Source: Planctomycetota bacterium
Lineage (GTDB): Bacteria; Planctomycetota; UBA11346
Direction: 5' to 3'
DNA: 64,000 nucleotides
NCBI GenBank assembly: GCA_038231435.1
Contig: JBBRLJ010000010.1
Coordinates: forward strand, 1 to 64,000
The notes under the pieces were generated by a model. The model did no database searches. It was not told where the DNA came from and worked only from the letters and a program-made list of their open reading frames with translations. The translations under genes and the position numbers were made by a program. This document shows, one piece after another, positions 4,951 to 32,715 of this stretch. Position 1 is the stretch's first letter. The number at the start of each line of letters is the position of its first letter.

Positions 4951-4979
4951 CGCATAAATTCCAGATGTTTTTGCCGGGT

Positions 4980-9892: not shown

Positions 9893-9912
9893 AAAAGGCT
9901 ACGCCGGGATGC

Positions 9913-10638: not shown

Positions 10639-10694
10639 GCATGCGCCTCAGTGTGATGGTGAGGTGAAGGGGCTTGATGACGAGGATTCAGCCA

Positions 10695-11495: not shown

Positions 11496-11631
11496 GCGTC
11501 GCTCACGCTCCCCCGGGCGGACATCCCACCGCGACCCTGGAACATGCCCAGGTCGCGGTGTGGCGTCGGTCTGACGCTAGGCGCGCCGCGCCGCTTATGA
11601 GCGCCAGGCCAGAGCGCGAATGCCTTGGCCA

Positions 11632-12948: not shown

Positions 12949-12999
12949 GCGCCACGCAGGGAATGGACGGGTCGCGCAGAGCCGGTCACACCGACCGCA

Positions 13000-15900: not shown

Positions 15901-18900
15901 GGATTCGAGCTCGCGGCGTAGGCGATCGATCTCGGCGTTCAGTCGGGCCCGGTCCTGGACCGACTGGGCGAGCTTGGCTTGGACGTCCTCGCGCTGGTTG
16001 GCCGCGGACTCGACATCCTTCTCGGCTTCGACGAGGCGATCGGCGAGCTCCTTCGCGCGCACCTGGTCGGAGATCTGCTTGCCGGCGTCCGAGAAGGCGG
16101 TGGCAGCCACCGCGGCGCGCGCGTCGGCGAGCAGGGCGACGGCCGAGCGGGCCTGGTCGCGCGCCTCGGCGAGTTGGAGCTGCAGCGACTGGATGTCGGC
16201 GTCGGTCGACGGAGCGCTCGGTCCGCCGGCTTTGCCTTCGAGCTCGGCAATGCGGGCCTCGGCCTTGGCGCGGCTGGTCTCCGCCTCGATCGCGGCCTGG
16301 GTGGCGTTGGCCATGGCCGAGGCGTGGCGCTGCTCATTGATGCCGCGCTCCTCGGTGAGGCGCTCGAGCTCGGCGCGGACGTGGTCGCGGTCCTGCGCCA
16401 GCTCGCGGATGCGCGCCTGGAGCGCCTCCTGCTCTGCGGTCAGGTCCTGCGCGCGGCGGCGTTCGCGCGCGAGCTCGGCCTCGAGGGTCTCGGCGCGGAC
16501 GGTGGCTGACGACACCTGCGCGAGCAGCTCTGATTCAGGGATGGGCGCGGGCTCGCTGGGCACCTCGGTGCCGTCGGAGCGGAAGATCCGCGTCGTGCTC
16601 TTGCGGTGGGTGAGCTCCTTGTGCAGGGATTCGCGCTCGGCTTCGAGGCGTTCGTACGCGAGGTTCAGCTCCTCGGCACGCTTCTTCGCCGACGAGAGGT
16701 TTGCGCGCGCGCCCTCGAGCTCGGTGTTCAGCACGTCGCTGCGGCCGCGCAATTCGCCGGCTTCGCGGCGGCTGGCGTCGAGCTCGGTCTGCAGCGCCAC
16801 GGCCTTGGCTTCCTGGTCGTTCAGGCGCTTCTGCGTCTGCTCGAAGGTCTGGCGCAGATGGTTGACCTTGGCCGCGAGCATCTCGGCGAGCGAATGATCC
16901 TCGGCTGCGGCGGGATCCGAGGTGACGCGCTGCAGTTCGGCCTCGGTCGATTTCAGATCGGCGCTGAGCTCGTGCTTGCGCGCGTCGAGCATGGCGCGCA
17001 GCTCGACCACGCGACGCATCTCGGCGTGGAGATCGGTGCCCTGATCCTTCTTCGCGCGGCGCGAGGTGAGGTCGCCACGCACCTTATGCAGCTCGCGCTC
17101 CATCTCCTCGACCTTGCTCTGCGCGGCGCCGAGCTGGGTCTGCAGGTCGCGCATCACTTCCTGGTGCAGCTCCTTCGTCACTTCCAGCGCGGTCACCGTC
17201 GAGCGCAGGCGCTGTTCGCGCGCCTTGGCCGCCTGCTGGGCCTTTTCGCTGATCTGCTTCTGCTCGTCGAGCAGACCCTGGAGGCGGAGCTTCTCCTCTT
17301 GCAGGGCCTGCTCACGCTGGCGCATCATCGACAGGTCGGTGCGCGTCTGCAGGAGCTCGGCGCGGATCGCGCCCAGTTCCTTGACCTGCTTCTTCAGCGA
17401 TGATATCTCGCCAGTCGGCGGATCGCCGGCGGGCTTCGCGTTCTGATCGCGCAGGCCCTTCACCATGCCGATGAGCACGTCCTCGGCGGTGGTGGTGGCG
17501 GCTTCATTCCGGCCGAGTTCATCCCACAGGCGCGAGATCTTGTCGGTCAACTCGGGCGCCATGACCTTCGGGTCGAGCTCGCAGGCGAGGCGGTAGATCT
17601 CGGCGGCGAGCGAGCGCGCCTCGGCGGCGTCCTGCTGGTGCGCGTGCTGCTCGCTCTCGAGCAGCGCGGTGGCCTTGAGCAGCTCCTCGCGCGCGGCGTT
17701 CTGGCCCTGCGTATGGGTGTCGTGCAGCTGGTCGTAGGCCTTCTTGAGCTCGGCGAGCTGGGTCTGGGTGTTGTTCAGCTCGAGCCTGGCGGTGTTCGCC
17801 ACGGTCTTCGAGGAAGGGGGCTTTACGGGAGCCACGTCGCCGTCGAAAGCGGCGAACGGATCGTCGCTCTTCTCGCGGCCCTGGCGATCCGACTGCTCGA
17901 CAATACGGCGCAGCACGGCCTCGGCGAACTGCACCATCTGCGAGACGTCGGTGTCGTGCAGGCTGTCGCGCAACCTGATGATGCGCGTCGAGAGCGTCTT
18001 GTCCTTGTGCTGCTTAGCGAGGTCGCTCGCGACCTCATCGATCTCGGCGATCAGGCTGCGCACCTCGGCGATGTCGGCCTTGCGCTCCTCGAGCACCTCG
18101 TTGATCGCCAGGTGGGCGATGTGCACCCGGCCCTGGGCCTCCTCGCGATCCTTGATCGAGTGCTCCATCAGCGCGTTGTAGGCGCGGCGCAGGTTCTCGA
18201 GTTCGCCCAGCACCACCTCGAGCGCGTCCTGGCTGCCCGCCTGGGGCTGGTACGGCTGGCCCTGGGTGGTCTTGCCGGCGGGCCTGCCCGCGGGCTCGTC
18301 GACCTGCACCTCGAGAGGCGGATGGTCCTGTGGATGGTCCTGTGGAAGGTCGCGCAGGTCGGCGGCGTCGTCGATGTCGAACGAGTCCTCGTCGAACTTC
18401 CCCTTCACCGTGGTCTTGGGGCCGTCGAGATCGAACGAGTCATCCTGGTACTTGCCCCTCACCGTTGCGACCGCGTCCAGGTCGAAGGAGTCTTCGTCCT
18501 TCTTGGAGTTGGGCGTCGAGGTGGTGATGTTCAGGTCGATCTCGGAATCGTCGTGCCGCGGCCTGGCGGTCTTTCCGGACTTTCCGTCCTTGGAGTCCTT
18601 GGCACGCCTCGACGCCGCCGAGCCATCGGATTTCGCGTTCACCTGGGTCTGCTTGGCGTCGTACGCGTCCATGCGCGTGCTCTTGGGCCCGCGCTCCTTC
18701 TTCTCTTTCTCGGCCTGGTTCGGCGCGGTCGCGCTCTGGTACGCGCCGGTGTTCGCCTCGCTCGGATCCATCAGCAGCTGGCCGACGGTCAGCTGCATCT
18801 GCTGCTGCGGCTCGAACGCGAAGGTGTCAGGCGTGATCTGCTTCTCCTTCACGAACAGCTTGATCTGTTCGAGACGGAAGGGGCCCGACCAGCCGTTGCC

Positions 18901-18939
18901 GACGTACAGGTAATAGACGTCGTCGGTGGCTTGCGTCAT
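13000..18939 (-). CDS. Giant protein (~1,980 aa): N-terminal GYF_2 (DUF4339)-like domain, long coiled coil, single TM, C-terminal HlyD/Alg44-like membrane-fusion domain
   Basis: N-terminus YYLYVGNGWSGPF.LEQI......ITPDT; over 1,000 aa of heptad-rich E/Q/A/R/L sequence; TM MAILIATAACAALTVVVLP; lipoyl-like halves AVVNARVWSIQSPITG and NPRTGKIWRI......VSIGDPI. Confidence 0.8.
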   Translation of the reverse strand: MTQATDDVYYLYVGNGWSGPFRLEQIKLFVKEKQITPDTFAFEPQQQMQLTVGQLLMDPSEANTGAYQSATAPNQAEKEKKERGPKSTRMDAYDAKQTQVNAKSDGSAASRRAKDSKDGKSGKTARPRHDDSEIDLNITTSTPNSKKDEDSFDLDAVATVRGKYQDDSFDLDGPKTTVKGKFDEDSFDIDDAADLRDLPQDHPQDHPPLEVQVDEPAGRPAGKTTQGQPYQPQAGSQDALEVVLGELENLRRAYNALMEHSIKDREEAQGRVHIAHLAINEVLEERKADIAEVRSLIAEIDEVASDLAKQHKDKTLSTRIIRLRDSLHDTDVSQMVQFAEAVLRRIVEQSDRQGREKSDDPFAAFDGDVAPVKPPSSKTVANTARLELNNTQTQLAELKKAYDQLHDTHTQGQNAAREELLKATALLESEQHAHQQDAAEARSLAAEIYRLACELDPKVMAPELTDKISRLWDELGRNEAATTTAEDVLIGMVKGLRDQNAKPAGDPPTGEISSLKKQVKELGAIRAELLQTRTDLSMMRQREQALQEEKLRLQGLLDEQKQISEKAQQAAKAREQRLRSTVTALEVTKELHQEVMRDLQTQLGAAQSKVEEMERELHKVRGDLTSRRAKKDQGTDLHAEMRRVVELRAMLDARKHELSADLKSTEAELQRVTSDPAAAEDHSLAEMLAAKVNHLRQTFEQTQKRLNDQEAKAVALQTELDASRREAGELRGRSDVLNTELEGARANLSSAKKRAEELNLAYERLEAERESLHKELTHRKSTTRIFRSDGTEVPSEPAPIPESELLAQVSSATVRAETLEAELARERRRAQDLTAEQEALQARIRELAQDRDHVRAELERLTEERGINEQRHASAMANATQAAIEAETSRAKAEARIAELEGKAGGPSAPSTDADIQSLQLQLAEARDQARSAVALLADARAAVAATAFSDAGKQISDQVRAKELADRLVEAEKDVESAANQREDVQAKLAQSVQDRARLNAEIDRLRRELESAANEHRASLQSARNRLVEEQERAESVERELAEVKSQMQVTASQRESINVTMAQAISAKDRLATEVQRLAGQIADQSADKTELAKRLAAEQAALAQANERIAELERMLATLEAEASDARIKVPELEARLTRSQAERQQFLSELDRLRGELVTASQQREAVESGHAEQQKLATQAADSLRQLQAVGEQRDRLQAHLDATKAELERLRVEFSELGQRESAHADALSRTESRLAVESTRYQTADQLLQQARDQYRTISGERDQTRLELAESQASRNQLEAQLKRLRTELDQIKARLATPGTEQDHMQSIADQARIGALEQELQDANRQLRDLALRETQRMAMLAAERDDFARELTALRTRSAGPASAVAEALERELAQARHDRETSVTEAAATRMKLEAVTRDYQRLDAQLTELKSDPLSSVRALETTKRRLARARRRIRALESGRGDALTSKPANSVATEEADLTALRQSAAFVTPGAVRPALRMEDASGRSSSPSTVPLTTSAPASLFTSQQYPSRPAEPTTGKPFTSPTHENAALTGSVGTGTSKAFVSSRGRPTVTVRATTQSMIPAVALTNARNATVRHPTRTMAILIATAACAALTVVVLPMAFTSSKQAVVNARVWSIQSPITGTLTLGNHGLGDTLNEQQALAMIDNAHVDTSTLDAMTASSKDLAARRDRLAAMRVIHDAALAVLRKADELALAKLESAREQLKQEGARLPEAARMAEVSGASIAALQRIHADTKLADTDWSSLVSADKTIQQKFEIAKQANDQAAAEVGTCETNLASIAQSLSQEEKRMDALQKQIAEVEAECAVVSHKIELESTRVARLKHADLTNPRTGKIWRILAPDHSAVSIGDPIAKIADSSSIAIDVSVKQSVADSIHVGDTVLIRLRGDSRTLEGIVEAQNLDAGIGEPACVLQNSSSGKILHVSIPETDTRLIGRGAKATFLGNDPGLIHRSFAWLYEKISF

Positions 18940-19209
18940 CGTGCGGTCCGGCGTGGATGACGAGCGGATGAAGGCATGGTTCCTGCCGGGCACGAAGGGC
19001 CCTGTCCGAGGTGGAGTCAATGGAAGTATACGCTGTATTTGCTGAAAGTGCTTGCACTAGGCGGCTTGCGGCGAAAGGCCTGGTCAGGCACAAGGGCTTG
19101 TGGATGGACTGCAACGAACCGCAGCGTTGGGTGTCGGGTGCAACTATTGCATCATATGGAGTATGTGAACAGAGACCGCTCGGCCTGGTCTCGGCGACGA
19201 CGTCCGCCC

Positions 19210-20094: not shown

Positions 20095-20853
20095 ATGGAC
20101 GGCACCTGGTCGCTATCCCTCGCCAGGCCGCCACGGATCCTGGCGATGGATCCATCGTCGCTCCAGGGCGCCAACGGGGTGGAACGGTTTCGCATCAAGG
20201 ACATGTGGTGCCTGAACCTCTACGATGGCGATGGTCTGCTTACCATCGATGGTCGCGCGTACGCGTTCGCTCGAGGATCGGCCAGCATCACCGCGCCGGG
20301 AATCGATCACGAATACCGCTATCGTCGTCCCACCAGGATCGTGTGGACGCACTTCAGGCCGGCAGCCGAAGCCGTCGCCTCATCGATCCCGGTCATGCAG
20401 GACCTGGGTGGTGAATACCCCCGCTTCCGTGGCGCGCTGGTCCATGCGGCAGCCGAGCGCGAGCCCGGCAGGACGCAGGCCCGGGTATGGGATCTGCTTT
20501 GGGAACTGGTCGAGCGATCCGCGCCGTCGCGCCCCGCCACCGGACTGGTCGCACGCGCCCGGCAGCTGATCTCGACCCGGCTGGCCGAGCCCCTGCGCCC
20601 TGGAGCGATCGCCGCTGAGCTCGGGGTATCGCACACGCACCTGAACCGCAGGTTCCGCGCCGAGGTGGGGTGCCCCATTGGGGCCTGGATCCGTAGCCAA
20701 CGCCTGGAACGGGCCCGGCACCTCTTGCGCTTCTCGACCAAATCCATCTCCGTGATCGCGCGCGAGGTCGGAATCCCCGACATCCATTTTTTCAACAAGT
20801 CGATGCGTGGCTACGCGGGCATGCCGCCGAGGTCGGTCCGTCGCGACGGCTGA
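20095..20853 (+). CDS. AraC family transcriptional regulator, divergent from the PhyH gene
   Basis: C-terminal double HTH: IAAELGVSHTHLNRRFR, RLERARHLL, IAREVGIPDIHFFNK. Confidence 0.9.
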   Translation: MDGTWSLSLARPPRILAMDPSSLQGANGVERFRIKDMWCLNLYDGDGLLTIDGRAYAFARGSASITAPGIDHEYRYRRPTRIVWTHFRPAAEAVASSIPVMQDLGGEYPRFRGALVHAAAEREPGRTQARVWDLLWELVERSAPSRPATGLVARARQLISTRLAEPLRPGAIAAELGVSHTHLNRRFRAEVGCPIGAWIRSQRLERARHLLRFSTKSISVIAREVGIPDIHFFNKSMRGYAGMPPRSVRRDG

Positions 20854-20889
20854 ACGGGGCTGGCGATGGTCGCGCCATCGACCTCGGGG

Positions 20890-21028
20890 TCAGGCCCGCT
20901 TCTTGGCGATCTCGTCGACCACATGCTCGGCGAACGGCATCGAGCAGGTCCACGCTGGCGACAGCGCGTTGAGCACGTGCAGGGAGCGGGCGTCGCCTTC
21001 GATCAGGAAATCCATCACCAAGGTGCGC
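20890..21028 (-). pseudogene. lhgO: Orphan 3' fragment of an lhgO allele (RTLVMDFLIEGDARSLHVLNALSPAWTCSMPFAEHVVDEIAKKRA*)
   Basis: Direct translation matches the C-terminus of lhgO at 31459-32715. No start codon or upstream coding part is present. Confidence 0.9.
20902..21028. repeat. 127-bp imperfect direct repeat, copy 1 (partner 31495-31621)
   Basis: Manual alignment gave 8 mismatches in 127 bp with no gaps. Confidence 0.93.
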
Positions 21029-21081
21029 CATCGACGGTAGAGAGCGCGGGCGATCCGGATCTGTGGCCAGGCATTTTGGCC

Positions 21082-22131
21082 TTAACGAGCAGCGAGTTCC
21101 GCGATGCGTCTCGCCAGGCTTTCGAGATCCTGGGTGGGCGCGTCGCATGCATTCGCGGTACACAGATAGGCGGTCGGAGACCCGCCCGGAAGGCGCGGCA
21201 TCAACGGCATGGCGGGGAAGCGCTTGCGCAGCACCTTCGACTCGGGCCGTTCGTCGAGGATAGCGATGGCGAATCCAGGCACCACGCGGCGATGGGCCGC
21301 CGAGAGCAGCGCGGTGGTGCCCGGTTCGTCAGGTCGGCCGATGAGCGTCAGGTGGAGCACCGGCGCATCGCGTTCAGCTCGCGCGAATGCCATGGGAGAC
21401 ATGGGCGTCTCGGGAGTCCTCACAGCCGGATGATCGGAAGATTCGGCGTCGACATCTGCTGCGATGATCGCGGATGCGCGAGCCGCGTAGCCGTCGTCGT
21501 CGGTGATGCGCGCCAGGCGGATGAGATTCCATGCGGCCCACCCCGTGATGGTACGTGGAAGCTTGGAACCAGGCTCGCCATACGCTGACTGCGCGCTACG
21601 CCAGCAATCGTGATCGAGGCGATCCTGGAGCTCGGCTGCCCAAGTCAGGGCCTCGGCTTGCCCACATGCCGAGTACAGGTCGATCAATCCATGGATGAGT
21701 TCGACCTGGTCCTCGATGGTCGCGGGGATGCGCGGCGGCGAGGCGGTCTGGGACAGCCCGTGCGTCGGATCCCAGGCAGTCTCATGCAGCGATGTGAACA
21801 GGCGCTGCGCGGCAGAGCGTGATTCAGGAGCATTCGCCAGGATATGGCATGTCGCCAGTGCGCCCATGACCAGACCTCGATAGCCGGTGGTCAGCGCTGC
21901 CAGGCCATCACCATGTCCCGCGAGTTCGGCGAGCGTGTGTTCAGTGATGGCGCGCTGATCGGATTCTGGGATCCCGGTCCTGAGCACGTACTCGTGGAGG
22001 ACCATCTCGATGCGGGCCGTAGCCGTGGCACCGGCGGGTTCATCCGACGTTGCGGAGTGGATACGTGCCGTGATTCCGACAGTGAGCGTGAGGGCGCACA
22101 ACATGACGCGGATGATGCCGGACCGGATCAT
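21082..22131 (-). CDS. Secreted protein resembling the C-terminal part of YyaL/DUF255 (SPATA20-like) proteins, without the N-terminal thioredoxin domain
   Basis: Motifs EDQ..LI.GLIDLY.A.G....L.WA.ELQ..LD, A..NLIRLA.IT, TAYLC....C..PT.D. Hydrophobic N-terminus. ATGA overlap with selD. Confidence 0.65.
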   Translation of the reverse strand: MIRSGIIRVMLCALTLTVGITARIHSATSDEPAGATATARIEMVLHEYVLRTGIPESDQRAITEHTLAELAGHGDGLAALTTGYRGLVMGALATCHILANAPESRSAAQRLFTSLHETAWDPTHGLSQTASPPRIPATIEDQVELIHGLIDLYSACGQAEALTWAAELQDRLDHDCWRSAQSAYGEPGSKLPRTITGWAAWNLIRLARITDDDGYAARASAIIAADVDAESSDHPAVRTPETPMSPMAFARAERDAPVLHLTLIGRPDEPGTTALLSAAHRRVVPGFAIAILDERPESKVLRKRFPAMPLMPRLPGGSPTAYLCTANACDAPTQDLESLARRIAELAAR

Positions 22132-23174
22132 ACGAAATCGATCCCCGGCGTGCCTGGGACGACTTCGCCCACCACCACCGACGGCGTATCTCCGCCATCA
22201 CGCAGCGTGCGCACCAGGGCGTCCGCGTGCGCAGGGTCGACAGCTATCAGCAGGCCACCACTCGATTGCGGATCGAACACCGCATGCGCGAGCGACGTGC
22301 TGACGGACGGCGATACAACGGCGCGATCTCCGGCGTAGAGGCGGTTCGATGCATCGCCACGGGTCAGGCAACCCGCGGCGATCGCGTTCTCGAGCCCCGG
22401 AAGCAGGGGAAGGGCAGAAGTGTCGATGCGCATGCGCACGCCGCTGGCGGAAGCGATCTCGGCACCGTGTCCGGCGAGCGAGAAGCCCGTGATATCGGTG
22501 GCAGCCCGCACCGCGAAGCGCTGCATGCAAGCGCCGGCATGGCGGTTGAGCCGCAGCAGGCTCTCGATCAGGACGCGGTGGTCAGCGGGGTCGATCAGTC
22601 CCTTCTTGGTCGCCGTGGCCATGATGCCGGTGCCCAATGCTTTGGTCAGCACCAACGCGTCGCCGACCAGCGCGCCGGCGTTGGCGAAATACCGCTCGCC
22701 CGCGCGTATCCTGCCGGTGACCGCCAAGCCGTAGGTCATCTCGGGCGCCTTGACCGAATGGCCGCCGACGATGGGACAGCGTGCCTCGGCGCACACCCGC
22801 GCGCCGCCGGCGAGGACGGCCCTGAGGATCTCGGGTCCCAGCTGTTCGGGATAGTGCACGAGGTTCAGCGCGAACAGCGGCTCGCCGCCCATGGCGTAGA
22901 CGTCTGACAGCGCGTTCGTCGCCGCGACCGCGCCGTAGGTCTCGGGGTCGTCGACGATGGGTGTGAAGAAGTCGGTGGTCGACACCAGCAGGGTGCCGTC
23001 CTCGAGCCGGTAGATGGCAGCGTCATCGCACTGGTCGAAGCCGACGAGCACGCGTGGATCGGTCGGCCAGGCGATGCCCTGCAGCGCGGCCGACAGCATG
23101 TTCGGATTCAGCTTGGCTGCGCAGCCCGCGCAGCTGACGGTCTGGGTGAGGCGAATAGGCTCGATCGCGGTCAT
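22128..23174 (-). CDS. selD: Selenide, water dikinase (Cys form)
   Basis: RLTQTVSCAGCAAKL, DDAAIY, TTDFFTPIVDDP..YG.VAA.NALSDVYAMGG, GGHS, LTKALGTG, TDITGF.L.GH..E, DPQSSGGLL. Confidence 0.96.
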   Translation of the reverse strand: MTAIEPIRLTQTVSCAGCAAKLNPNMLSAALQGIAWPTDPRVLVGFDQCDDAAIYRLEDGTLLVSTTDFFTPIVDDPETYGAVAATNALSDVYAMGGEPLFALNLVHYPEQLGPEILRAVLAGGARVCAEARCPIVGGHSVKAPEMTYGLAVTGRIRAGERYFANAGALVGDALVLTKALGTGIMATATKKGLIDPADHRVLIESLLRLNRHAGACMQRFAVRAATDITGFSLAGHGAEIASASGVRMRIDTSALPLLPGLENAIAAGCLTRGDASNRLYAGDRAVVSPSVSTSLAHAVFDPQSSGGLLIAVDPAHADALVRTLRDGGDTPSVVVGEVVPGTPGIDFV

Positions 23175-23277
23175 CGTGTTCCTCGCGGGGTGCGCTCGGT
23201 TCCTGTCATCGACTCCCCGCCGTCCGGCCTTTTCTAGGCTGTGCAGCGCTGTGTCGGGCGGAATTCCCAGCAGAGAG

Positions 23278-23371
23278 TGGCGGGACGGTGTCGGAGTCGA
23301 ACCCACCTGGGATGTTTCCACCCCACCGAGGCTTTGAAGGCCTGGGACCGCACCGGCGGCCATACCATCCC
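23278..23371 (-). tRNA. selC: tRNA-Sec (UCA)
   Basis: 94 nt. 8-bp acceptor stem GGGAUGGU/ACCGUCCC, 6-bp D stem with 4-nt loop, anticodon loop CUUCAAA, long variable arm, G73 plus encoded CCA. Lies between selB and selD. Confidence 0.96.
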
Positions 23372-23415
23372 ACCGACGTTCTAGAGCCCAGCGATCTGGC
23401 TTCCATCGCAATCCG

Positions 23416-25392
23416 CTAGGCAAAGAGTGGAATCGGCAGGTTTCGCGCCATGCCGGCCACGCGGTGATCCCCGACGCGCTTCGTGACTCCGATCGAGTCG
23501 AGCCATTCGAGTAGCGGCACCGCATCGCGTCGCGACAGGCCGTGCACCGCCTTCATCCATGCGATGTCGATCGTTCCACCTTCGGTGGTGGACGTGACAG
23601 CCGCGCGCACCAGGTCCTCGCCATGCCGACGATGCAAGTGCAGTCTGTCGTTGAGTCGCAGGAGCTGACCGCGCTCGCGCAAGGCGATGAGGGCATCTGC
23701 CGCGCGCTGGGGATCGGAGCAGGCGGCCACGCACGGATGGTCGTAGGGCGGATGGAGTCCGGCGCGATCGAAGGCGCGCAGCAATTCCGCCGCCGACGTC
23801 TCCAGGCGTTTGGCGAGGGGGGTGACCGACGCTGGCGAGGTGACGACGTCTCCGCGCCTGAGTAGGTCGCCGCACTCGACCAACGAAATGATGGCTTCAT
23901 CCCACCAGTTTCGCGCAAGCGCTGGAGCGATCGCGATGTGCAGGTCGCCAACTCCATGCCAGCAGCGGTCGGGATCGGCGCTCAGCCGGTCGGCCAGGCC
24001 TTCGCTGATCATCGTCCGCAGCTTCGTCCAGCCGGCGCTACTGCACACCAGGCGTTCCTGACCGACCTGGCGGATGACCACGCGATTCCCGGACGCATGC
24101 AGCATGTCCTCGGCCGGTCCAGGACCACCGGCCCATGCCGCCAGCGCGGACATGGTCATCGCCTGGGGATGGATGGAATCCAGGTGCGAGAGCAGGCGCT
24201 CGGCGCCACCCCCGAGACGCGAGGCGAAATGCGCCGTGGCTTCAGGTGAGAAACGGCGGTGGCGAGGCGGAGCGGCATCGACCACGCAGCCGCCGGCGAG
24301 GGTGGCGGCCGGGCTCGGACGGCGCAACACCACGAGGTCACCCGCAGAGAGGTGAAGTGGCGCCTCGAGCCGCAGCTGCGCGTCGTGCTCGCCCGCCTCC
24401 GCGTGGTCGACGTGCAAGAGATGCACGCGTGCCGGTACCGAGTCGGTGCCGTGATGCACCGTCACGCGCTCGCGGTGCGTGAGGCCGGTCGCCAGGGTGG
24501 TCAGGCGCACGTCCGCGACGAGCGTGGCCGCGAGTGCTCTGGGCGTCGCGAGCCAGGCGCCCCTGCGCACCTGGTCGTGATCGATGCCGGCGAGATTGAC
24601 GGCGGTACGTTGACCGGCCAAGGCGGTCGAGACGCCGCTCCCATCGACCTGCAGCGAACGCACGCGCACCACGCCGCCTGGATAGAGCTGCAGCTCGTCT
24701 CCAACCGCGATGGTGCCGCTGCGCAGCGTGCCGGTGACGACCGTGCCATGACCAGAAATCGTGAACACGCGGTCGATCGCGAGCCGCGCATGTTCGCCCG
24801 CTCCTGAGTGGCGCGCCGTGCGTGCGCGTTCGAGCAGCCAGGCGCGCAGGTCGTCGATGCCGGCCCCTGTCTTCGCGCTGACCGCGAGGGGGGGATGTTC
24901 TGCGAAGGGGGTGCCGGCGACGAGTGACGAGGCCAGATCGCGCGCGCGCGCGAGGCCCGCAGCGTCGACGGCGTCCGCCTTGCTCAGCACCACGCGGCCC
25001 CAACGCAGGCGCAGCAAGGTGAGGATGTCGAGATGCTCGCGGGTCTGCTGGCGCGGCCCTTCGTCAGCTGCGATGACCAGGACGCAGCCATCGACGGCGC
25101 CCACGCCCGAGACCAGGTGATGGACGAAGCGTTCATGCCCGGGGCAGTCGATGAAAGCGAGGTCGATTCCGGCGGCGCCCCCGTGCATGAACGCGAAGCC
25201 GAGCTCGATCGTCATGCCCCTGGCCTTCTCCTCCGGGAGACGGTCCGGGTCTGTTCCGGTGAGCGCTCGTACCAACGAGCTCTTGCCATGATCGACGTGT
25301 CCGGCGGTGGCGATGGTCACCTGCGGTGGGGCCGTGCGTCGCGTTCCTGCCGTTGCCGCCGACGCTCCGTGCGCTCCCTTTGCAGGAGACAC
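23416..25392 (-). CDS. selB: Selenocysteine-specific elongation factor
   Basis: TAGHVDHGKS, DRLPEEKARGMTIELGFA, DCPGHERF, DRVFTI.G.GTVVTGT, and C-terminal winged helix GLSRR.AVPLLEWLD...TKRVGD.R. GTG start inferred. Confidence 0.96.
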   Translation of the reverse strand: MSPAKGAHGASAATAGTRRTAPPQVTIATAGHVDHGKSSLVRALTGTDPDRLPEEKARGMTIELGFAFMHGGAAGIDLAFIDCPGHERFVHHLVSGVGAVDGCVLVIAADEGPRQQTREHLDILTLLRLRWGRVVLSKADAVDAAGLARARDLASSLVAGTPFAEHPPLAVSAKTGAGIDDLRAWLLERARTARHSGAGEHARLAIDRVFTISGHGTVVTGTLRSGTIAVGDELQLYPGGVVRVRSLQVDGSGVSTALAGQRTAVNLAGIDHDQVRRGAWLATPRALAATLVADVRLTTLATGLTHRERVTVHHGTDSVPARVHLLHVDHAEAGEHDAQLRLEAPLHLSAGDLVVLRRPSPAATLAGGCVVDAAPPRHRRFSPEATAHFASRLGGGAERLLSHLDSIHPQAMTMSALAAWAGGPGPAEDMLHASGNRVVIRQVGQERLVCSSAGWTKLRTMISEGLADRLSADPDRCWHGVGDLHIAIAPALARNWWDEAIISLVECGDLLRRGDVVTSPASVTPLAKRLETSAAELLRAFDRAGLHPPYDHPCVAACSDPQRAADALIALRERGQLLRLNDRLHLHRRHGEDLVRAAVTSTTEGGTIDIAWMKAVHGLSRRDAVPLLEWLDSIGVTKRVGDHRVAGMARNLPIPLFA

Positions 25393-25393
25393 C

Positions 25394-26842
25394 TCAGGCT
25401 CCTCGGTCGGTAGCCGCGTCGCGCGCGCTCGCCACGATCGCGGCCGCGAGCGCGCTGATTTCGCTTTCAGCAACGGTCCGCAAGTCGATCTGCACGACGT
25501 CCTTGGCGATGCGGGCCACCACATGCCGCCTACGCAGCGCCCGTGACAACCGGGTCGCTGACACCTGGCGCAGTACGATCAGCCAGGTCAGCGGGCCCTG
25601 GGTCGGAGCCGCGCCAGATCCGACGGCGCCTCGGCCTTCTGCGAGCTCGGCCTCCAACGAGGTCTGTGAGCCCTCGGCCCGTATGGAGGAAAGCCCAAGG
25701 GATCCCATGGCCGCGAGCAGGCGTTCAGCGCGCGCGCGCACGGAAGCGAGCGGCTCGGTGAGCATCGCGATCGTGGGAATGGCAGTGAAGGCGTCGCCGA
25801 GCAGGTAGTCCTGGAGTGTGCCCGCCAAGGCCGCGAGCGTGAGCTTGTCCGCGCGCAGAGCGCGCGCGAGCGGATGGCGCTTGCAGCGCGCGATCAGGTC
25901 GCGTTTGCCGATGAGGATGCCGGCCTGGGGTCCGCCGAGCAGCTTGTCACCGGAGAACGAGACGAGATCCGCGCCTGCGGCGAGTTCATCGCCCACGCGT
26001 GGCGCGACGATGCCCGTGGGCCCGAGATCGACGATGCAGCCGGATCCTTGGTCGACCACCACCGGCAGCTTGTGACGTGAGCCGAGGGCGGCGAGCTCCG
26101 CGGTGGAGACTTCGGCGACGAAGCCCTCTTGGACGAAGTTCGATTTGTGAACCTTCATCAGCAGCGCGGTCTGGGGCGTGATTGCGCGCTCGTAATCCTC
26201 GATGCGCGTCTTGTTGGTGGATCCGACCTCGATCAGCCGGCAGCCCGCGGCCGCCATGATCTCGGGCACGCGGAACGAACCGCCTATCTCGACCAGTTCG
26301 CCGCGGCTGACGATGACCTCACGGCCCTGGGCCAGGGCCTGCAATGCCAGCACCACCGCGCCGGCGCAGTTGTTCACCGCCAATGCCACTTCGGCGCCGG
26401 TGAGCCGGCGCAACAGGGGTTCGACATGCATCTGCCGATCGCCTCGCTCGCCGCTGTCGAGATCGTGCTCGAGCTGGCAATACCCATGAGCGATGCGCTC
26501 GACCGCGGCTTGCGCGCGAGCGCTGAGCGCGGCGCGGCCGAGACCCGTATGGAGCACCGTGCCGGTGGCGTTGATCAGCCGAGGTAGCGGTGGAGCAGCG
26601 AGCGCTCGCGCCGCGGCGCGAGCTCGATCGAGCACCATGGCGCGCAGGGCATCCTTGTCCGACGTGTCCGGGCCCGTCCCAGCCGCGGTCGCATGCTTCG
26701 CTTGGACGGACAGCGTGGCTCGCATGGCGTCGATGGCTTCGCGAGCCAACGCCGCTGCGGTCGTCGCGGGCAGGCCATCGTGGCGGAGGTCGCCGGCGAT
26801 GGCCTCGACCGCCGGCAGCAGGCGAAGCGCGTCGATCGTCAT
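25394..26842 (-). CDS. selA: L-seryl-tRNA(Sec) selenium transferase
   Basis: INATGTVLHTGLGRA, VNNCAGA, SRGELVEIGGSFRVP, EVGSTNKT, FSGDKLLGGPQAG (PLP lysine), RALRADK. Confidence 0.97.
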   Translation of the reverse strand: MTIDALRLLPAVEAIAGDLRHDGLPATTAAALAREAIDAMRATLSVQAKHATAAGTGPDTSDKDALRAMVLDRARAAARALAAPPLPRLINATGTVLHTGLGRAALSARAQAAVERIAHGYCQLEHDLDSGERGDRQMHVEPLLRRLTGAEVALAVNNCAGAVVLALQALAQGREVIVSRGELVEIGGSFRVPEIMAAAGCRLIEVGSTNKTRIEDYERAITPQTALLMKVHKSNFVQEGFVAEVSTAELAALGSRHKLPVVVDQGSGCIVDLGPTGIVAPRVGDELAAGADLVSFSGDKLLGGPQAGILIGKRDLIARCKRHPLARALRADKLTLAALAGTLQDYLLGDAFTAIPTIAMLTEPLASVRARAERLLAAMGSLGLSSIRAEGSQTSLEAELAEGRGAVGSGAAPTQGPLTWLIVLRQVSATRLSRALRRRHVVARIAKDVVQIDLRTVAESEISALAAAIVASARDAATDRGA

Positions 26843-26902
26843 GCCGGACGATGCGCTGCGGCTGACGCGGTGCAACCCTGCCAGCAGCCGATCAGGCGGG
26901 GG

Positions 26903-27835
26903 TCACTTGATCGAGGCAGCCTTCTGGCCGTAGACCGTGGAGGGGAACTTCTTGGCCAACGTCGCCATGTTCTCCTTGCCAGATTTGATGCTGTCGGGCT
27001 TGGGCGAGGCGAGCAGCTGCTGGCACTGCTGATAGATGTCGCGCGCCTTGAGTTCGTCCTTGAGCTCCTTCGCAGCCTTGAGCTCCTTCAGTCGCGCCAA
27101 GGCCTTCTTGGTGTCGAGTCCCTCGGACGCGGTCAGGAAGGCCTCGATCGCCTCGTAGGTCTCCATGGTTGCCGGAGCGCCGACCAGGTCATCTTGGCGC
27201 TTGCTCGTGGCGGCTTTCACCGCGTCGAGGATGCGCACCGCATCGGCCTGCGCCGGCGACTTCTTGCCAGCGACCGACTGCAGATTCTTGATCGCCCCGG
27301 GATACCCGCGCTCGACGCTCCACCACAGCTCCTTGATCTTCGGTTCGGTGAGACCTTCGATGGGATAATGGAAGCTGCCAGCCGCGGTGCCTTTGAGTGA
27401 CTTCAGCGTCTGGAGACCTTCGAAGTAGCCCACGCTCCCATCCGGATGCAGCATGTCGGTCTGGAGGATGTTGTTGAGGCTGATGTTCTTGCGATTGCGC
27501 GGGTCGTTGGCCCAGAGCGCATGCTCCAAACCGTAATTGTTGTCCTTATCGAAGGTCTTGAGTTCTTCCGCCGAGAGCTCGGGCGTGATCAGCACGAGCG
27601 TGACGGGGACCTTCTCGGTCTCGATGTAATCATGGATCGCCTTGGCTTCCTTCCCGAGGAAAGCTCTAGCGGATGGTCAATGCGCGCAGAAATCGACGAG
27701 CACCACGTTCTGGCCGTGGAATTGCTCGGCGCTGCGGCTCTTGCCGTCGGCGAACTGCAGGCCCTCGAGAGGATCCTGGGCGGCGAGCGCGGCTACGAAG
27801 ACCAGCGCGGCGGCGATGCGCAAGTGGGAATGCAT
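26903..27835 (-). CDS. Predicted selenoprotein (310 aa, Sec53): signal peptide + redoxin/thioredoxin-like domain + helical C-terminal domain
   Basis: ATG at 27835 with a GGAG RBS. MHSHLRIAAALVFVAALAAQD..FADGKSRSAEQFHGQNVVLVDFCAH-TGA(27679-27677)-PSARAF continues in frame into the 230-aa ORF at 27595. A hairpin follows the TGA, and the gene is directly upstream of selA. Confidence 0.85.
27638..27676 (-). promoter_or_regulatory. Candidate bacterial SECIS element
   Basis: After the UGA: lower stem CGCU/GGCG, upper stem GCUUUCCU/AGGAAGC (one bulged U), apical loop CGGGA about 20 nt downstream of the UGA. Confidence 0.6.
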
Positions 27836-27985
27836 GGGGAACTCCGATCGGTGGCTGGATGCGATCCAGCGGGCAGGACAGGAGCATCATGTCCATGGTG
27901 AATGGCGGTCAATGACCCTTAGTTAGAACCCGTTTCGGGAGCCGCTGCCTCGAATTCCTCACCCACCCGTCATAAGGCCACGCAA

Positions 27986-29170
27986 TCACATGAAGTTGGC
28001 GGTGTGCAGGTCCGAGATTTCCGCTGCCTCTTCGGTTCCAAAACCGAGTTGCCCCAGCCGGGTGCGGCGGTTTGCGTCCATCTCGGCGCGCAGCGCCTGC
28101 ACGCTATCGAACCCATTGCCGATCGCCTGCGGCGTCAGGTCGGTGGCGGCGAGGACGACCAGGGCGTCGAGCACCAGCGCATTCAGGTCGGCGGAGTTGC
28201 GCAGCGCGTCGGCACGGCGTCTGACCACCATCGCCAGCCGCGATCGTTGGCTCGGATCCAGATCGAGGTGGCGCCGCAGATGAGCGATCCCGAACGCGAC
28301 ATGTCGGCTCTCGTCCTGCACCACCAAGCGCATGATCGACCTGGTCAGCGGATCGGGTGCGTGCCGTTCGATGAAGGCCAGCAGGGTCAGGAAGGTGCCT
28401 TCGCCCATCACCGCGAGCATGAAGGATGCGAGCGTGAAATCCGGCTCGTCGAGCAGGGACTTCAGCGAACGTTGTCCGAGGACGGTTGAACGACCCACGC
28501 CGGCCGCGGTCAGCGCGAGCCTGCGGGTGAAGACCTCGCAGTGGCGCGCTTCGTCAGCGGCTTGGATCGCCAACACCTGCATGATCTCGCGGAAATGGGG
28601 ATGGACCTGTGCGAGGAAGCGCGCGGTCACCAGCAGCGCCGCGTTTTCGTTCTCGATCAGGAACGTCAGGATCTGCGCGATCGCGGCGTCCAATGCCGGG
28701 GCGACGCACGGCGGCGTCCAATCGATCGCGCGTTCGGGATCCCACTGGGCGGCGGCGGCCTGCGCGTACAGGCGGGGAGCCTCGTCGCACCATACCGTGT
28801 CGCGCTCCGAGAGCGTGAATTGGAAATCCGGTCCACCACGTTCAACCATGGCGCCGCGTGCGGCGAGGCCCCAGTGACCCGATGCATGACCCGCCATGGA
28901 AAGCGGTTTCGTGCTGTCGCCGGCGCGCGCGGTATCCGACCAGCGCTCATCTGCCAAGCCGCGCACGATGCGCCCGGTTGCCAGGGAGCCCGCCTCGGCA
29001 GGGAGGAAGCCATGGCCCATCTGGCGGCACCACGTCGCCAGATGCAGGCCGAGGTCGGAGGCCGAGCCTCGCACCGCGAGTGCGGCGCCCACCGGTACGG
29101 TGGCGAGGGCGCGATCGATCAGGAGATGAGCGCCACGATCGAGGCCGAGGCCCTCGAGATCGAGCGCCAC
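27986..29170 (-). CDS. Ferritin-like di-iron protein with an N-terminal TusA/SirA-like domain
   Basis: N-terminus LDLEGL..RAL..VPVG..L.V......L..WCRQMGH; di-iron ligands ENE, DEARH, GEG, DESRH. GTG start just after the upstream stop (alternative ATG 29230). Confidence 0.75.
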   Translation of the reverse strand: MALDLEGLGLDRGAHLLIDRALATVPVGAALAVRGSASDLGLHLATWCRQMGHGFLPAEAGSLATGRIVRGLADERWSDTARAGDSTKPLSMAGHASGHWGLAARGAMVERGGPDFQFTLSERDTVWCDEAPRLYAQAAAAQWDPERAIDWTPPCVAPALDAAIAQILTFLIENENAALLVTARFLAQVHPHFREIMQVLAIQAADEARHCEVFTRRLALTAAGVGRSTVLGQRSLKSLLDEPDFTLASFMLAVMGEGTFLTLLAFIERHAPDPLTRSIMRLVVQDESRHVAFGIAHLRRHLDLDPSQRSRLAMVVRRRADALRNSADLNALVLDALVVLAATDLTPQAIGNGFDSVQALRAEMDANRRTRLGQLGFGTEEAAEISDLHTANFM

Positions 29171-29171
29171 C

Positions 29172-30053
29172 TCAGTACTGGTAGTCGCGGGCGATGATGC
29201 GTCCGGAGGCGTCGTAGAAGGCGAGGGCATCGACGGCCTCCTCCAGGGCTTGGTAGTGGGACGCGCGTCCGTCGCGCCAGGCTTTCAAGCCTTCGAGATC
29301 GAGCAGCGGTCTGACGTCGGCGTCCGCATAGGACATTCCCAGCAGCAGCGTGCGGAAATCGGCGAGAGGTCCGCGCGCGAGCGTCGCGCTGTCACCATTG
29401 GCCGTGAGCGCGGTGAAGTTGCAATGATCGTAGGGTTCCGTCCGCGCCAGGACGTGCACCGCTCCTGGTCCAATCAGCCTCTCGTGGGTGAACAGCAGGT
29501 GGTTCGCATCGATGATGCAGGCGGCATCGGCCTCGCCCCGCACCAAGGCTCGTACCGCCTCGCGCTCGCCGCCGATGTGATCGCCATGTTTGCCGACGTG
29601 CAGGTCGAAGCGCTTGACTGCCACATCGCTGCCAGGACGAAGGCCGGCGCGCAGGACCAGGCCGAGCGGGATCAAGGTCGACTGTGGCGAGTCGATGGCG
29701 CCGGTGGCGATGGTCCGACCGCGCAGATCCGCGATCGTCTTCGTGGGTGTGTCGGCGCGCACCAGGATGAGCGAGGTCAGATCCTGGTCGGTGTCACGCA
29801 TGGCGACCGCATGGGCGGTGAGTCCAGAGGCCACGGCCAGGCGACGAGTTCGCACCCACGCGAGCGGAGAATTCCAGGCGACGCCGATGTGGCCAGCCAT
29901 GAGCGCTTCGACCTGCCGCTCGTAGTTGCTGTACAGGACGACGTCGACATCGAGTCCCTTGCGCAGGAACCAGGCCTGGAAGCCCTCCCAGATCGTCACG
30001 ACCTTCGGATCATAGGCGACCGCGCCGAGCACGAGCCGAGCATGCGCGCTCAT
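29172..30053 (-). CDS. PhnD/SsuA-type substrate-binding-fold protein with no signal peptide
   Basis: Y..QVEAL..G.I.VAWNSP..WV, S.ILVRAD.....DLRGR.IA.G..DS.QS...P, AV.AL..G.ADAA. Confidence 0.8.
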   Translation of the reverse strand: MSAHARLVLGAVAYDPKVVTIWEGFQAWFLRKGLDVDVVLYSNYERQVEALMAGHIGVAWNSPLAWVRTRRLAVASGLTAHAVAMRDTDQDLTSLILVRADTPTKTIADLRGRTIATGAIDSPQSTLIPLGLVLRAGLRPGSDVAVKRFDLHVGKHGDHIGGEREAVRALVRGEADAACIIDANHLLFTHERLIGPGAVHVLARTEPYDHCNFTALTANGDSATLARGPLADFRTLLLGMSYADADVRPLLDLEGLKAWRDGRASHYQALEEAVDALAFYDASGRIIARDYQY

Positions 30054-30119
30054 GGACGCCGGTGTCCTCTGTTCCGCGACACCAAGCTCACTGGCGATGT
30101 TCTCATGGCATGGTCCAGG

Positions 30120-31259
30120 TCAGAACAAGGGCAGTCCGCAGACCGCCTTGCCGATGAAGTCAGACAGGGCGTCGGATGTGGGTGCCATCACCGCCGCGGC
30201 GCGCGCGTCCCGGAACAGGCGTTCGATTGGCGATTCGCGGCGGAATGCAGCGCCGCCACAGATGCGCATGCCCAGATCGGTGACCTCGAGCGCGGCTTCC
30301 GACGCCGCGAACTTCACTTCGAGCACACGCAGCATGGTGTCGGCGCGATTGCTGGAGATGGCGGCGATGGTGTCGAGCCACAGTGCTCTAGCCATGTCGG
30401 CGCGCACGCGCATATACGCGATCTTGGCGCGCGGTACCGGTTGTTCAGCGACGGTCTGGCCGAGGTGTTCGAAGCGCGTCCGCGCCATGTGGTCGGCCGT
30501 CGCGGTCACCGCGGCATTCATCAAGCCGATGGACATCGCGCTATTGAGGACCTGGAACCACGGCAGCACCACGCCCATCATGATGTTGAAGCCGTCGCCG
30601 TCCTTGCCGAGCATCGAGCTCTGCGGCACCATCACGCTGGTGGCGGTGATCGGCGAGGAGTCGTTGCCGCGCAGGCCGATCCCGTCGAAGGCTTTACTGC
30701 TGCTCAGCCCTGGAGAACCTTTCGGCACCAGCCATAAGGTGCTGGCACCGGCGGATGCTAGCGGCTTGCTCGACCAGACGTACGAATCCGCCTCGCCGGC
30801 GGCGGTGACCCACGACTTCATCGCATCGAGACGCACGCTCGCGCTCGCGGTGGAGGTGGCGGTCGCGGTGGAGAGGGGCGCCCAGAACATCGAGCGCGAT
30901 CCGCTCTCCGAGAAGGCGAGGGTGGAGAGATGCTTACCCGACGCGATCGCCTCGCGCAGGGGTTTCGATCCGTGGGTTTCGATCACCGCGGTCGCTGAAT
31001 AGTGCATGCACATGATCATCGCGGTCGAGCCGCAGGCTTGCCCCAAGCGCTCGACCACCTGCGCCGCATCGGCGAGCGTACCGCCGGTGCCGCCCACATC
31101 ACGGGAGCTGATCAGTCCGAGAAGGCCGGCCTTGGCCAGGGCATCGATGGATTGCCTGGGAAACGTTCCAGCCCTATCCACGCTCCCGGCAGCCGGAGCG
31201 ATGACCGAGACGATCACGGCGTCGAGGATCGCGAGGTCGAAGGAGACGATGGCTGTCAT
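30120..31259 (-). CDS. Acyl-CoA dehydrogenase family flavoprotein
   Basis: GLLGL....GG.G, CGSTAMIMCMH, LAFSE.GS, KSWVT, GIGLRGNDS, GG.AF....IERLFRDARA. Confidence 0.9.
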   Translation of the reverse strand: MTAIVSFDLAILDAVIVSVIAPAAGSVDRAGTFPRQSIDALAKAGLLGLISSRDVGGTGGTLADAAQVVERLGQACGSTAMIMCMHYSATAVIETHGSKPLREAIASGKHLSTLAFSESGSRSMFWAPLSTATATSTASASVRLDAMKSWVTAAGEADSYVWSSKPLASAGASTLWLVPKGSPGLSSSKAFDGIGLRGNDSSPITATSVMVPQSSMLGKDGDGFNIMMGVVLPWFQVLNSAMSIGLMNAAVTATADHMARTRFEHLGQTVAEQPVPRAKIAYMRVRADMARALWLDTIAAISSNRADTMLRVLEVKFAASEAALEVTDLGMRICGGAAFRRESPIERLFRDARAAAVMAPTSDALSDFIGKAVCGLPLF

Positions 31260-31458
31260 GGTGGACTCGTGAGCTGTGACATCTGGCGTTTTTCGTGCTT
31301 GTGGCATGAGCCACAAGGGCACGAGTGCGTGACAGTATGGGTTACATACCAGCCCGTGTCTAGCGCACCCATCATGAGCTGAACGAGCATTCTTGGCCAG
31401 AGCGTCACCACGTTGGGAAACAGGTGATTGCGCCTTGATCCATCGACCCGCAATGGAA

Positions 31459-32715
31459 TCAGGTCTGCGCGACTGTCCGGTGGCTCGATCTCCGCTTCGC
31501 GATCTCATCGACCACATGCTCGGCGAACGGCATCGAGCAGGTCCAGGCCGGCGACACCGCGTTGAGCACGTGCAGGGAGCGGGCGTCGCCCTCGATCAGG
31601 AAATCCATCACCAGCGTGCGCGTGCGCAGGTCGAGCAGCTGCGCGCGGATGCCGGGCTTGCCCCAGCGCCGGTAGTCGGAGCGGTCGACGCCGCCGATCA
31701 GCTTGGCCGCCTGGCCAACCAGGTATGAGCGCGAGAACTTCTTCAGCTCTTGTACCGCCAGGCCGCGGAAATCGAAACCCGCGTGCACCATCAGTCCGGC
31801 CTCGCGGGTCACGACCTCGATGAACTCACCCAGATCGAAGCGGCCGAAACCGTGGTAATTCTCTCGCCAGAAGGCGGGGATCGCGGTCGGGCCGATCTTG
31901 ACGTGGCCATCGACCGTGACCGTGTAATGGACCCCCAGGAAAGGATACTTCAGGTCGGGCACCGGATAGATGTGCGTGCGCAGCCCGCCTGGCTGCTCAT
32001 CCGAATACAGGTAGAGGCCTTTGAACGGCAGGATGGTGTGGTGCTGGCAGAAGCCGAAATCCCGGGCGATGCGGTCAGCGTGCAGCCCGCCCGCGTTCAC
32101 CACGCAGCCGGCCTCGATGGTGCCGGTCGTGGTTCGTACCCGCGCCGCAGCGGCGGGATCCGCGGGTAGAGTCGCGCCCAGATACGCGCAACCGCGGCGG
32201 ACCTCGACTCCCGCTGCTGCGGCGTCGGACGCGAGGCTGTTGATGACCGCGACCGGATCCGCCGAAGCCGTGGTAGGTGACCATAGCGCGCGCTGGCAGG
32301 TCTTCACCCGCGGCTCGATGCGGCGGGCGTCGGCCTCGTCGATCATTTCGAGCTTCACGTGGTTGGCGCGGGCGCGGCGCAGCAGCTCATCGAGACCGGC
32401 GAGTTCGCGCTCGTCCTTCGCCACCACCAGCTTGCCGCACTCGTTCAGAGGCAATCCGCGCTCGCGGCAGTAGGCGCGCAGGCGGCGGTTGCCATCGCGG
32501 CAGAAGCGCGCCTTCATGCTGTCGGCTGAATAGTAGAATCCGGCGTGGATGACCCCGCTGTTGCGGCCGCTGGCGTGCCGGCCGCAATCCGGTTCCTTCT
32601 CGAGCAGGGTCACGCGTGCGCGGGGCTCGCGTCGCTTCAGCTCGATCGCCACGGTCACGCCCACGATTCCGCCGCCGATGATCAGGTAGTCGGTGACGAG
32701 GGGGCCAGCGCTCAT
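31459..32715 (-). CDS. lhgO: L-2-hydroxyglutarate oxidase
   Basis: IIGGGIVG, HASGRNSGVIHAG.YY...SMKA, CGKLVVA, IYPVPD...PFLGVH.T, GIRAQ, HVLNAVSPAWTCS. Confidence 0.88.
   Translation of the reverse strand: MSAGPLVTDYLIIGGGIVGVTVAIELKRREPRARVTLLEKEPDCGRHASGRNSGVIHAGFYYSADSMKARFCRDGNRRLRAYCRERGLPLNECGKLVVAKDERELAGLDELLRRARANHVKLEMIDEADARRIEPRVKTCQRALWSPTTASADPVAVINSLASDAAAAGVEVRRGCAYLGATLPADPAAAARVRTTTGTIEAGCVVNAGGLHADRIARDFGFCQHHTILPFKGLYLYSDEQPGGLRTHIYPVPDLKYPFLGVHYTVTVDGHVKIGPTAIPAFWRENYHGFGRFDLGEFIEVVTREAGLMVHAGFDFRGLAVQELKKFSRSYLVGQAAKLIGGVDRSDYRRWGKPGIRAQLLDLRTRTLVMDFLIEGDARSLHVLNAVSPAWTCSMPFAEHVVDEIAKRRSSHRTVAQT
31495..31621. repeat. 127-bp imperfect direct repeat, copy 2, within the lhgO 3' end
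   Basis: Aligns without gaps to 20902-21028. Confidence 0.93.

Follow-up and report, generated by a model that had tools for sequence, protein, structure and literature searches.

The window analysed here is a 64,000-nucleotide stretch of a Planctomycetota genome (assembly GCA_038231435.1, contig JBBRLJ010000010.1, positions 1 to 64,000). Behind lhgO, the gene for L-2-hydroxyglutarate oxidase, it carries a block of 10.6 kb with a complete, single-copy operon for the decoding of selenocysteine (Sec), a predicted secreted client protein with a CxxU motif, and three further genes, here called the triad, that likely serve in the handling of selenium. We put the probability of this reading as a whole, including the recombination of the block behind lhgO from a sister lineage, at a little under 60%. 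The notable find is the triad, a widespread candidate selenium pathway; Sec clusters with one client are already known. How bacteria source reduced selenium for SelD is only partly known, and the triad offers three conserved, cytoplasmic-looking candidates.

Distribution of the triad and its link to selenocysteine

The triad consists of an acyl-CoA dehydrogenase (ACAD)-fold flavoprotein, a PhnD-fold protein without a signal sequence, and a protein with a TusA-like N-terminal domain joined to a diiron ferritin-like domain. The flavoprotein gene (30120..31259), similar to Rv1679/FadE16, was recognised by Pfam and by the NCBIfam profile NF049984 (381.7, below the cut-off of 600), the gene for the PhnD/PtxB-fold binding protein (29172..30053) by profile scores, alignment and a structure model, and the third gene (27986..29170) by its match to AurF (36.3 bits, cut-off 29.6). 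Like all genes between the two repeat copies discussed below, they lie on the minus strand.

With the diiron protein as query, the best 80 of 283 loci were surveyed, which come from many phyla. A PhnD-like gene was present in 78 of these and an ACAD gene in 71. For 13 of the 76 loci outside the family of the source genome, the flanking sequence retrieved includes a Sec gene. The order selA-triad-selB-selC, seen in 7 of the 76 (in Variovorax, Ideonella and Rhizobacter), probably reflects one event. The first 50 of the other 63 loci belong to genomes of which 48 contain selA (45 above cut-off), and the two without selA carry selB or selD; when two genomes flagged as unpublished (G082 and G091) are left out, the count is 46 of 48. 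In Streptomyces, selA was found in 12 of 13 triad genomes vs. 58 of 301 in the background (11 of 12 without the centre; Fisher, 5e-8), and in Polyangiales in 20 of 23 vs. 62 of 201 (1e-8), where all three genomes missing selA have selB or tRNA-Sec. The only near-complete genome found to have triad genes but no sel genes, Streptomyces G220, has no selA, selB or selD above cut-off, and its triad (L215:8535-10930) is broken: the ACAD gene is fragmented, the PhnD-like gene frameshifted and the diiron gene short at its N-terminus. Within the source genome's own family, the diiron gene occurs in 4 of 47 genomes, all of them among the 15 with selA.

In G049, a four-gene ABC transporter is inserted downstream of the diiron gene and ahead of the selenoprotein gene (L048:7430-10717), and its binding protein matches TIGR04553, putatively a selenate family, with a score of 313.8 (cut-off 250). 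Homologues also adjoin the triad in three Variovorax loci. In the loci of the Variovorax type, the triad is located downstream of fdo genes and selA, and all three non-planctomycete triad carriers tested have a TGA-containing molybdopterin enzyme. Such an enzyme was not found in the source genome or in G023, both of which have the triad; thus, the triad is not specific to formate dehydrogenase.

It is likely that the triad is selenium-related, and its tracking of the Sec machinery across phyla goes beyond what a preliminary description of this DNA had claimed. Several points weigh against such a link. The Streptomyces and Polyangiales controls are fixed samples in which kin are not independent, so that the P values are overstated, and in Polyangiales the presence of either gene is confounded with the size and completeness of the genomes. 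Sec does not depend on the triad, which only 12 of the 58 selA-positive Streptomyces genomes have. G001, a congener of the source genome that is 61% complete, has the ACAD and PhnD-like genes, while selA, selD and tRNA-Sec were not found in it. Mycobacterium tuberculosis, which has the related Rv1679 and Rv1680 families, is not known to use Sec. Finally, the occurrence of SelD in Streptomyces matches that of SelA (61 vs. 58), and the link to Sec is therefore not separable from a link to SelD. No report of a connection between the triad and selenium was found in the accessible papers searched.

Protein features and possible chemistry of the triad

The ACAD-fold flavoprotein lacks the catalytic Glu, since a MAPT segment aligns with the YEGT of ACADs in the PDB, and this vMAPT segment is conserved in 63 homologues. 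At the alternative position for the catalytic Glu, the alignment of homologues has no conserved Glu either. The catalytic Glu is likewise missing in members of the superfamily that do not dehydrogenate, such as desulfinases and flavin monooxygenases, and the flavoprotein gives weak profile matches to these members.

The PhnD-fold protein has the invariant residues H156, D158, H159, E163, D209, H210 and C211. It scores 38.5 against the PhnD profile (cut-off 261) and 44.9 against TIGR04553 (cut-off 250). No signal-like N-terminus is present in the 12 homologues listed, and the block contains no permease. In score, export signal and adjacent permease or ATPase, it thereby departs from the periplasmic ABC binding proteins of the PhnD and TIGR04553 families. 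The structure model (pLDDT 95.3) gave PhnD, PtxB, HtxB, AioX and ArrX as the best Foldseek matches (TMq 0.6-0.73), which suggests a fold like that of phosphite, hypophosphite and arsenite binders.

In the diiron protein, two DExRH motifs are invariant, and the ligands E176, E208/H211, E258 and E288/H291 are invariant in 72 sequences. The closest folds to its model (pLDDT 94.3) were a VlmB-like protein (Z 23.2, rmsd 3.1, 256 aligned) and R2lox (Z 21.6). The four-helix fold, the two ExxH motifs and the two further Glu ligands are those of the group formed by VlmB, R2lox, ADO and AurF. Thus, the predicted diiron site is complete, and the modelled domain is nearer to VlmB-like, R2lox and aldehyde-deformylating enzymes than to storage ferritins. 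The TusA-like domain scores 15.7 against Pfam TusA (cut-off 28.6; E 0.013), and no conserved Cys is found at the CPxP motif that characterises TusA/SirA carriers.

We tentatively propose that the triad binds and converts a selenium compound in the cytoplasm and so supplies SelD with selenium or salvages it for this enzyme. The signal-less PhnD-fold protein would bind a selenium oxyanion or a seleninate in the cytoplasm, after which the ACAD-fold flavoprotein and the diiron enzyme would cleave the ligand or shift its redox state, freeing selenium for selenophosphate synthesis. The co-location of the putative selenate importer of the TIGR04553 family fits such a supply. The triad might instead remove or detoxify excess reduced selenium, or repair or mature selenoproteins, a role that we regard as possible and somewhat doubtful. 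The resemblance of the diiron domain to oxidases and oxygenases would suit it, as would the position of the Variovorax-type triad after fdo genes and selA and the TGA-containing molybdopterin enzyme in the carriers mentioned above. The two triad genomes in which no such enzyme was found speak against a role tied to formate dehydrogenase, however, and the neighbouring importer argues for supply. Extended to a pathway spread over at least eight phyla, which would salvage organoselenium or oxidised selenium for SelD, be packaged with the Sec genes and a selenoprotein, and be lost and regained through recombination at lhgO, the supply hypothesis becomes more speculative, and we would not favour it in that full form.

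The candidate selenium genes YedE, YedF, DUF3343 and LysR_Se were recognised by their co-location or co-occurrence with sel genes (PMC5322559; reviewed in PMC9312934). The triad resembles these, and TIGR04553, in this respect, and both a TusA/SirA-like domain and a PhnD-like fold are encountered again; its binding protein differs from TIGR04553 in the low score given above. In the main texts of the two papers, the terms 'acyl-CoA', 'ferritin' and 'phosphonate' do not occur. The best NCBIfam matches of the ACAD-fold and PhnD-fold proteins are the families of Rv1679 (FadE16) and Rv1680 (NF049984 and NF049985), which form the same adjacent pair. However, both scores are below the cut-offs (381.7 vs. 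600 and 217.8 vs. 400), and here the TusA-like/diiron gene is joined to the pair. Its hosts include culturable and harmless bacteria (Variovorax, Streptomyces), in which it lies within the sel operon, and this makes it directly testable.

The selenocysteine operon and its predicted client

The source genome (108 contigs, 87.6% complete, 3.35% contamination) has the full set for Sec decoding, with selA, selB and selD above curated cut-offs and a tRNA-Sec, and no second set was found in it. Downstream of the client gene follow selA (25394..26842; TIGR00474 482.4, cut-off 267.9), selB (23416..25401, start approximate; TIGR00475 309.3, cut-off 242.25), the tRNA-Sec gene selC (23278..23371; found by ARAGORN and by RF01852 with 72.3, gathering threshold 47) and selD (22128..23174; TIGR00476 346.4, cut-off 125), which encodes the Cys form (SCAGCAAK). 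The last gene (21082..22131) encodes what we take to be a YyaL-like protein, corresponding to the C-terminal half; contig C31 has a longer paralogue, to which it is 35% identical. A similar gene comes after selD in G023 and G048.

The client gene (26903..27835) encodes 310 amino acids, with an in-frame TGA at 27677-27679. Its product has a signal-like N-terminus, a CAHU (CxxU) motif and a helical C-terminus, from which it is predicted to be a secreted selenoprotein; no Pfam or NCBIfam family scored above cut-off. G023, G044 and G049 retain the TGA, hence it is present in all four cassette orthologues in which the site is covered, the source genome included, while four homologues (in G002, G014 and G015 and one of the G018 copies) have TGC at this position. 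A 20-nt hairpin resembling a selenocysteine insertion sequence (SECIS) lies at 27645..27664, 12 nt downstream of the TGA. It is identical in the four TGA orthologues, though the adjacent codons vary, and is missing from all four Cys homologues. Its folding energy is unremarkable (z 0.53), and it has no SECIS match in Rfam. The client is thus predicted to represent an unclassified family of selenoproteins that shows Sec/Cys pairs and has a candidate SECIS of sharp conservation, for which no report was found in the accessible literature searched.

A heuristic scan of the source genome by coding potential yielded 82 TGA read-through candidates; among the 29 of these listed, only the cassette gene is convincing as a Sec client. 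One candidate on contig C78 was dropped because it is an off-strand frame. The single molybdopterin enzyme of the genome has no stop within the matched region. A search for selenoproteins beside the triad in other phyla gave 522 CxxU/UxxC candidates, but their ten largest clusters proved to be shadow frames, mostly of the triad genes themselves. A second, distant TGA-containing family (23-26% identity) with CxxU or xxCU motifs adjoins selA or selD in G009, G016, G018, G019 and G024 (loci L018, L022, L039, L050 and L051), which represent four other genera of the family. Because of these paralogues, sel clusters with such a client are considered old in the family.

The clustering of the Sec machinery with one client has been named as a condition for the transfer of the trait (Zhang et al., 2006; PMC1794560). 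Descriptions of sel operons in planctomycetes also exist (PMC4807772). Like the bacterial selA-selB-selC(-selD) clusters (PMC1794560), the block contains complete Sec machinery beside one client. It differs from them in that its client, a CxxU protein with a signal and no assigned class, is neither FdhA nor a Sec-containing SelD, in that three extra enzymes come along, and in that the trees give no sign of distant transfer. The locus thereby adds a Sec operon in which the one client detected is something other than formate dehydrogenase.

The lhgO repeat and the origin of the block

The block is bounded by a direct repeat. The right copy (31495..31621) is inside the intact lhgO (31459..32715, minus strand; NF008726 340.4 bits, cut-off 299; C-terminus ..EIAKRRSSHRTVAQT*). 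The left copy (20902-21028, minus strand) is within an orphan lhgO 3' end (20890..21028), which lacks the 5' part of the gene and has its own stop, KKRA*. The former would be the incoming and the latter the resident allele. As previously described, the copies align without gaps over 127 bp; 119 positions are identical (93.7%), and the eight differences comprise seven synonymous ones and one V/L change (dS 0.27, dN 0.01). The gene content between the copies, all on one strand, was likewise borne out by Pfam and NCBIfam profiles, ARAGORN and Rfam. The sequence occurs only twice in the 5.2-Mb genome. Among the 51 same-contig repeat pairs of 70-600 bp found genome-wide, it is the sole two-copy case, the others being multicopy. 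A multicopy family of intergenic-looking repeats of 100-250 bp has dozens of copies in the genome, for instance on contigs C2, C12, C17, C23, C44 and C55.

That the repeat could be an assembly chimera of two strains is hardly credible. The fragmentation and contamination of the assembly would allow it, and contigs of two runs (X3 and X4) have three left-copy alleles within the right copy. Such a mixture would be expected from bubble collapse in a 31-mer assembly, since the copies share exact stretches of 33 and 38 bp, the latter being the longest; gene conversion, though conceivable, was not taken as its cause, as the assembly gives the same picture. Moreover, depth is even. In contigs of run X1, it is 13.4 in the left flank, 14.6 and 13.9 in the block, and 15.1 and 15.5 to the right, and runs X2-X4, with lower depth, show no step across the block. 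All four junctions are bridged: between araC and the left copy in X1, between the left copy and the YyaL-like gene in X1 and X2, between the ACAD gene and the right copy in X1, X3 and X4, and between the right copy and the body of lhgO in X3 and X4. Runs X1-X4 belong to one study, and X1 is possibly the assembly's own source. At window position 26388, in selA, the window has A and the contigs of X1, X2 and X3 have G; the A is possibly a consensus error of the assembly.

The preliminary description regarded the block as a horizontally moved module with its own client. The single sel set and the single convincing client agree with this, but the trees do not point to transfer from afar. FastTree and quick trees with midpoint roots were used, that of RpoB being a quick tree that leaves out G001, G002, G044 and G048. 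In the SelA tree, the source genome is sister to the clade of genus g7 (support 99; clade 95), and in the SelD tree it is likewise outside g7 and the other carriers, as in that of RpoB, whilst its ACAD groups with that of the congener G001 (99). Since these trees follow the species tree, the block appears native to this Planctomycetota lineage. The closest homologues of its genes are in records titled Planctomycetota, and the genes are as diverged from those of relatives as core genes are (ACAD 80% identical to G001 and 72% to G023; lhgO 80% to G002 and 69% to G023). The block gene order also occurs, in pieces, in 4 of the 11 genomes of g7 (G023, G044, G048 and G049). A gain of the Sec module from a distant lineage is very improbable. 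The patchiness of selA (15 of 47 family genomes) would suit it, as would the congeners G001 (61% complete) and G002 (79% complete), in which selA, selD and tRNA-Sec were not found. Yet, the SelA, SelD and ACAD trees match that of RpoB for the common taxa. Furthermore, G001 retains the ACAD, PhnD-like and YyaL-like genes and a client homologue, and G002 retains a Cys client that groups weakly (83) with the selenoprotein, which suggests loss of Sec with a Sec-to-Cys change. The simplest history of the block is inheritance with patchy loss. The SelA proteins of genera g2, g11 and g16 (loci L040-L046) form a clade apart from those of g1, g7, g8, g15 and g18, though g2 is near the source genome in the RpoB tree; a separate acquisition of Sec by g2 is possible.

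The interval behind lhgO is variable within the genus: G002 has lhgO, then ~460 bp and a large downstream gene, without block or araC, and G001 has neither lhgO nor the block at this locus. For the origin of the repeat, we lean towards recombination with DNA of a sister lineage. Incoming DNA with lhgO and the block would have undergone a homologous crossover inside lhgO and, at its other end, an illegitimate joint ~140 bp before the stop codon of the resident lhgO, leaving the resident 3' end, a hairpin and araC stranded behind the block. As such a combination gives the observed layout, no integrase is needed. Homology-facilitated illegitimate recombination has been proposed for the displaced 3' ends in effector arrays of the Vibrio type VI secretion system (T6SS), where an anchor crossover and an illegitimate joint also move the resident 3' end behind new DNA (PMC5361080); in contrast to these arrays, the present case is a single event in a metabolic gene, without a repeated array. 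The repeat is a scar of a familiar recombination type, left on a Sec operon native to the lineage. That both copies evolved as coding alleles, as previously suggested, is moderately favoured, because the probability of at least seven synonymous changes among eight lies between 0.007 and 0.08, according to the mutation bias assumed, if one copy of a local duplication were decaying; the synonymous bias is therefore weaker evidence than it first appears. At a dS of 0.27, the proposed donor would be a very close sister lineage, which the trees are too coarse to resolve. G002, with its lhgO and no block, supports the acquisition at lhgO that had been postulated, whilst the exact predicted empty site, with KKRA* next to araC, was not found among the relatives.

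Other observations weigh against recombination with a sister lineage. No donor with lhgO adjoining the block was found among the relatives, metagenome scans with the lhgO pattern and the selenoprotein gave no match, and viral records contained neither the lhgO end nor the SECIS motif, with at most one trivial match of 15 residues. Three of the changes in the left copy are from G/C to A/T, as in decay. The right copy continues for 11 residues beyond EIAK, and this tail may be read-through instead of an end that the donor itself had, as would fit a target duplication. Alternatively, the block may have changed place inside a single genome through an illegitimate event in which 127 bp of lhgO were duplicated, after which the orphan decayed and the intact copy drifted synonymously. 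We consider this unlikely, even if the block genes are native to the genus, the homology stops ahead of the stop codon, and the single amino-acid change affects the orphan, with L at a position that is V in all 12 close lhgO relatives. A run from a second study (X5) contains a relative at ~89%, of which parts of the ACAD gene, the diiron gene, the client, selC/selB and selD are present. One contig aligns over the start of the ACAD gene and upstream DNA up to 31372 and, among the rows listed, continues with 319 unaligned letters, a weak hint that lhgO is not ahead of the ACAD gene in this relative, as would fit local duplication. Against such a duplication stand the probability of the synonymous excess given above and the lack of any indel in 127 bp at a dS of 0.27.

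Improbable, too, is an island that entered through an integrase now lost or acting in trans, or a repeat-bounded block that is excised as a circle. Its layout is like that of icd/icdC around the e14 element of Escherichia coli (PMC13626634), with an intact gene at one end, an orphan C-terminal copy and mainly synonymous differences. The displaced 3' duplicate of the target is thus present, but a cognate integrase is not among the block's open reading frames (ORFs), the GC and GC3 of the block match those of its flanks, and, unlike for e14, there are no phage genes and no sign of lhgO as a recurring target. The H47 island (PMC5426353) is comparable in size (13 kb) and has long imperfect repeats (148/144 bp, listed also as 144-148 bp, vs. 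127 bp) and no recombinase, as here; in contrast, the repeats of the block are coding and 94% identical, and movement in and out as a circle is a feature of H47. The seven tyrosine recombinase hits (PF00589) in the genome are all on other contigs, and no serine recombinase or transposase was detected by Pfam among the 18 ORFs around the block, a search that was not made genome-wide; the earlier statement that no integrase or transposase is visible holds to this extent. The cassettes of G023, G044, G048 and G049 were not found adjoining lhgO, and G002, G018, G023 and G044 have one lhgO 3' copy each. There is no hint of an abundant circle or empty site in the evenness of the depth, the 31-mer contigs being unable to phase the repeat; G002 is empty but only 78% identical. 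The viral records mentioned above argue against an island as well.

Outside the repeat, a small hairpin (20864..20880), detected from sequence and fold, lies between the orphan stop and that of the convergent gene for an AraC-family regulator (20095..20853, plus strand; Pfam), which is missing from the equivalent locus of G002; the hairpin was possibly the original shared terminator. At 13000-19020 (minus strand), the window encodes a coiled-coil protein of ~2000 amino acids with weak GYF_2 (N-terminal) and HlyD_3 (C-terminal) matches. Its gene is kept in both congeners and forms the fixed right anchor of the variable interval. The region 3700-13000 is a polysaccharide cluster of low GC (53-62% vs. 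67% in the genome), with ORFs that read as glycosyltransferases and flippase-like, WecB-like and O-antigen ligase-like proteins, and is likelier than the Sec block to be of foreign origin. A tRNA-Val(CAC) gene is located at 59425-59500 (plus strand).

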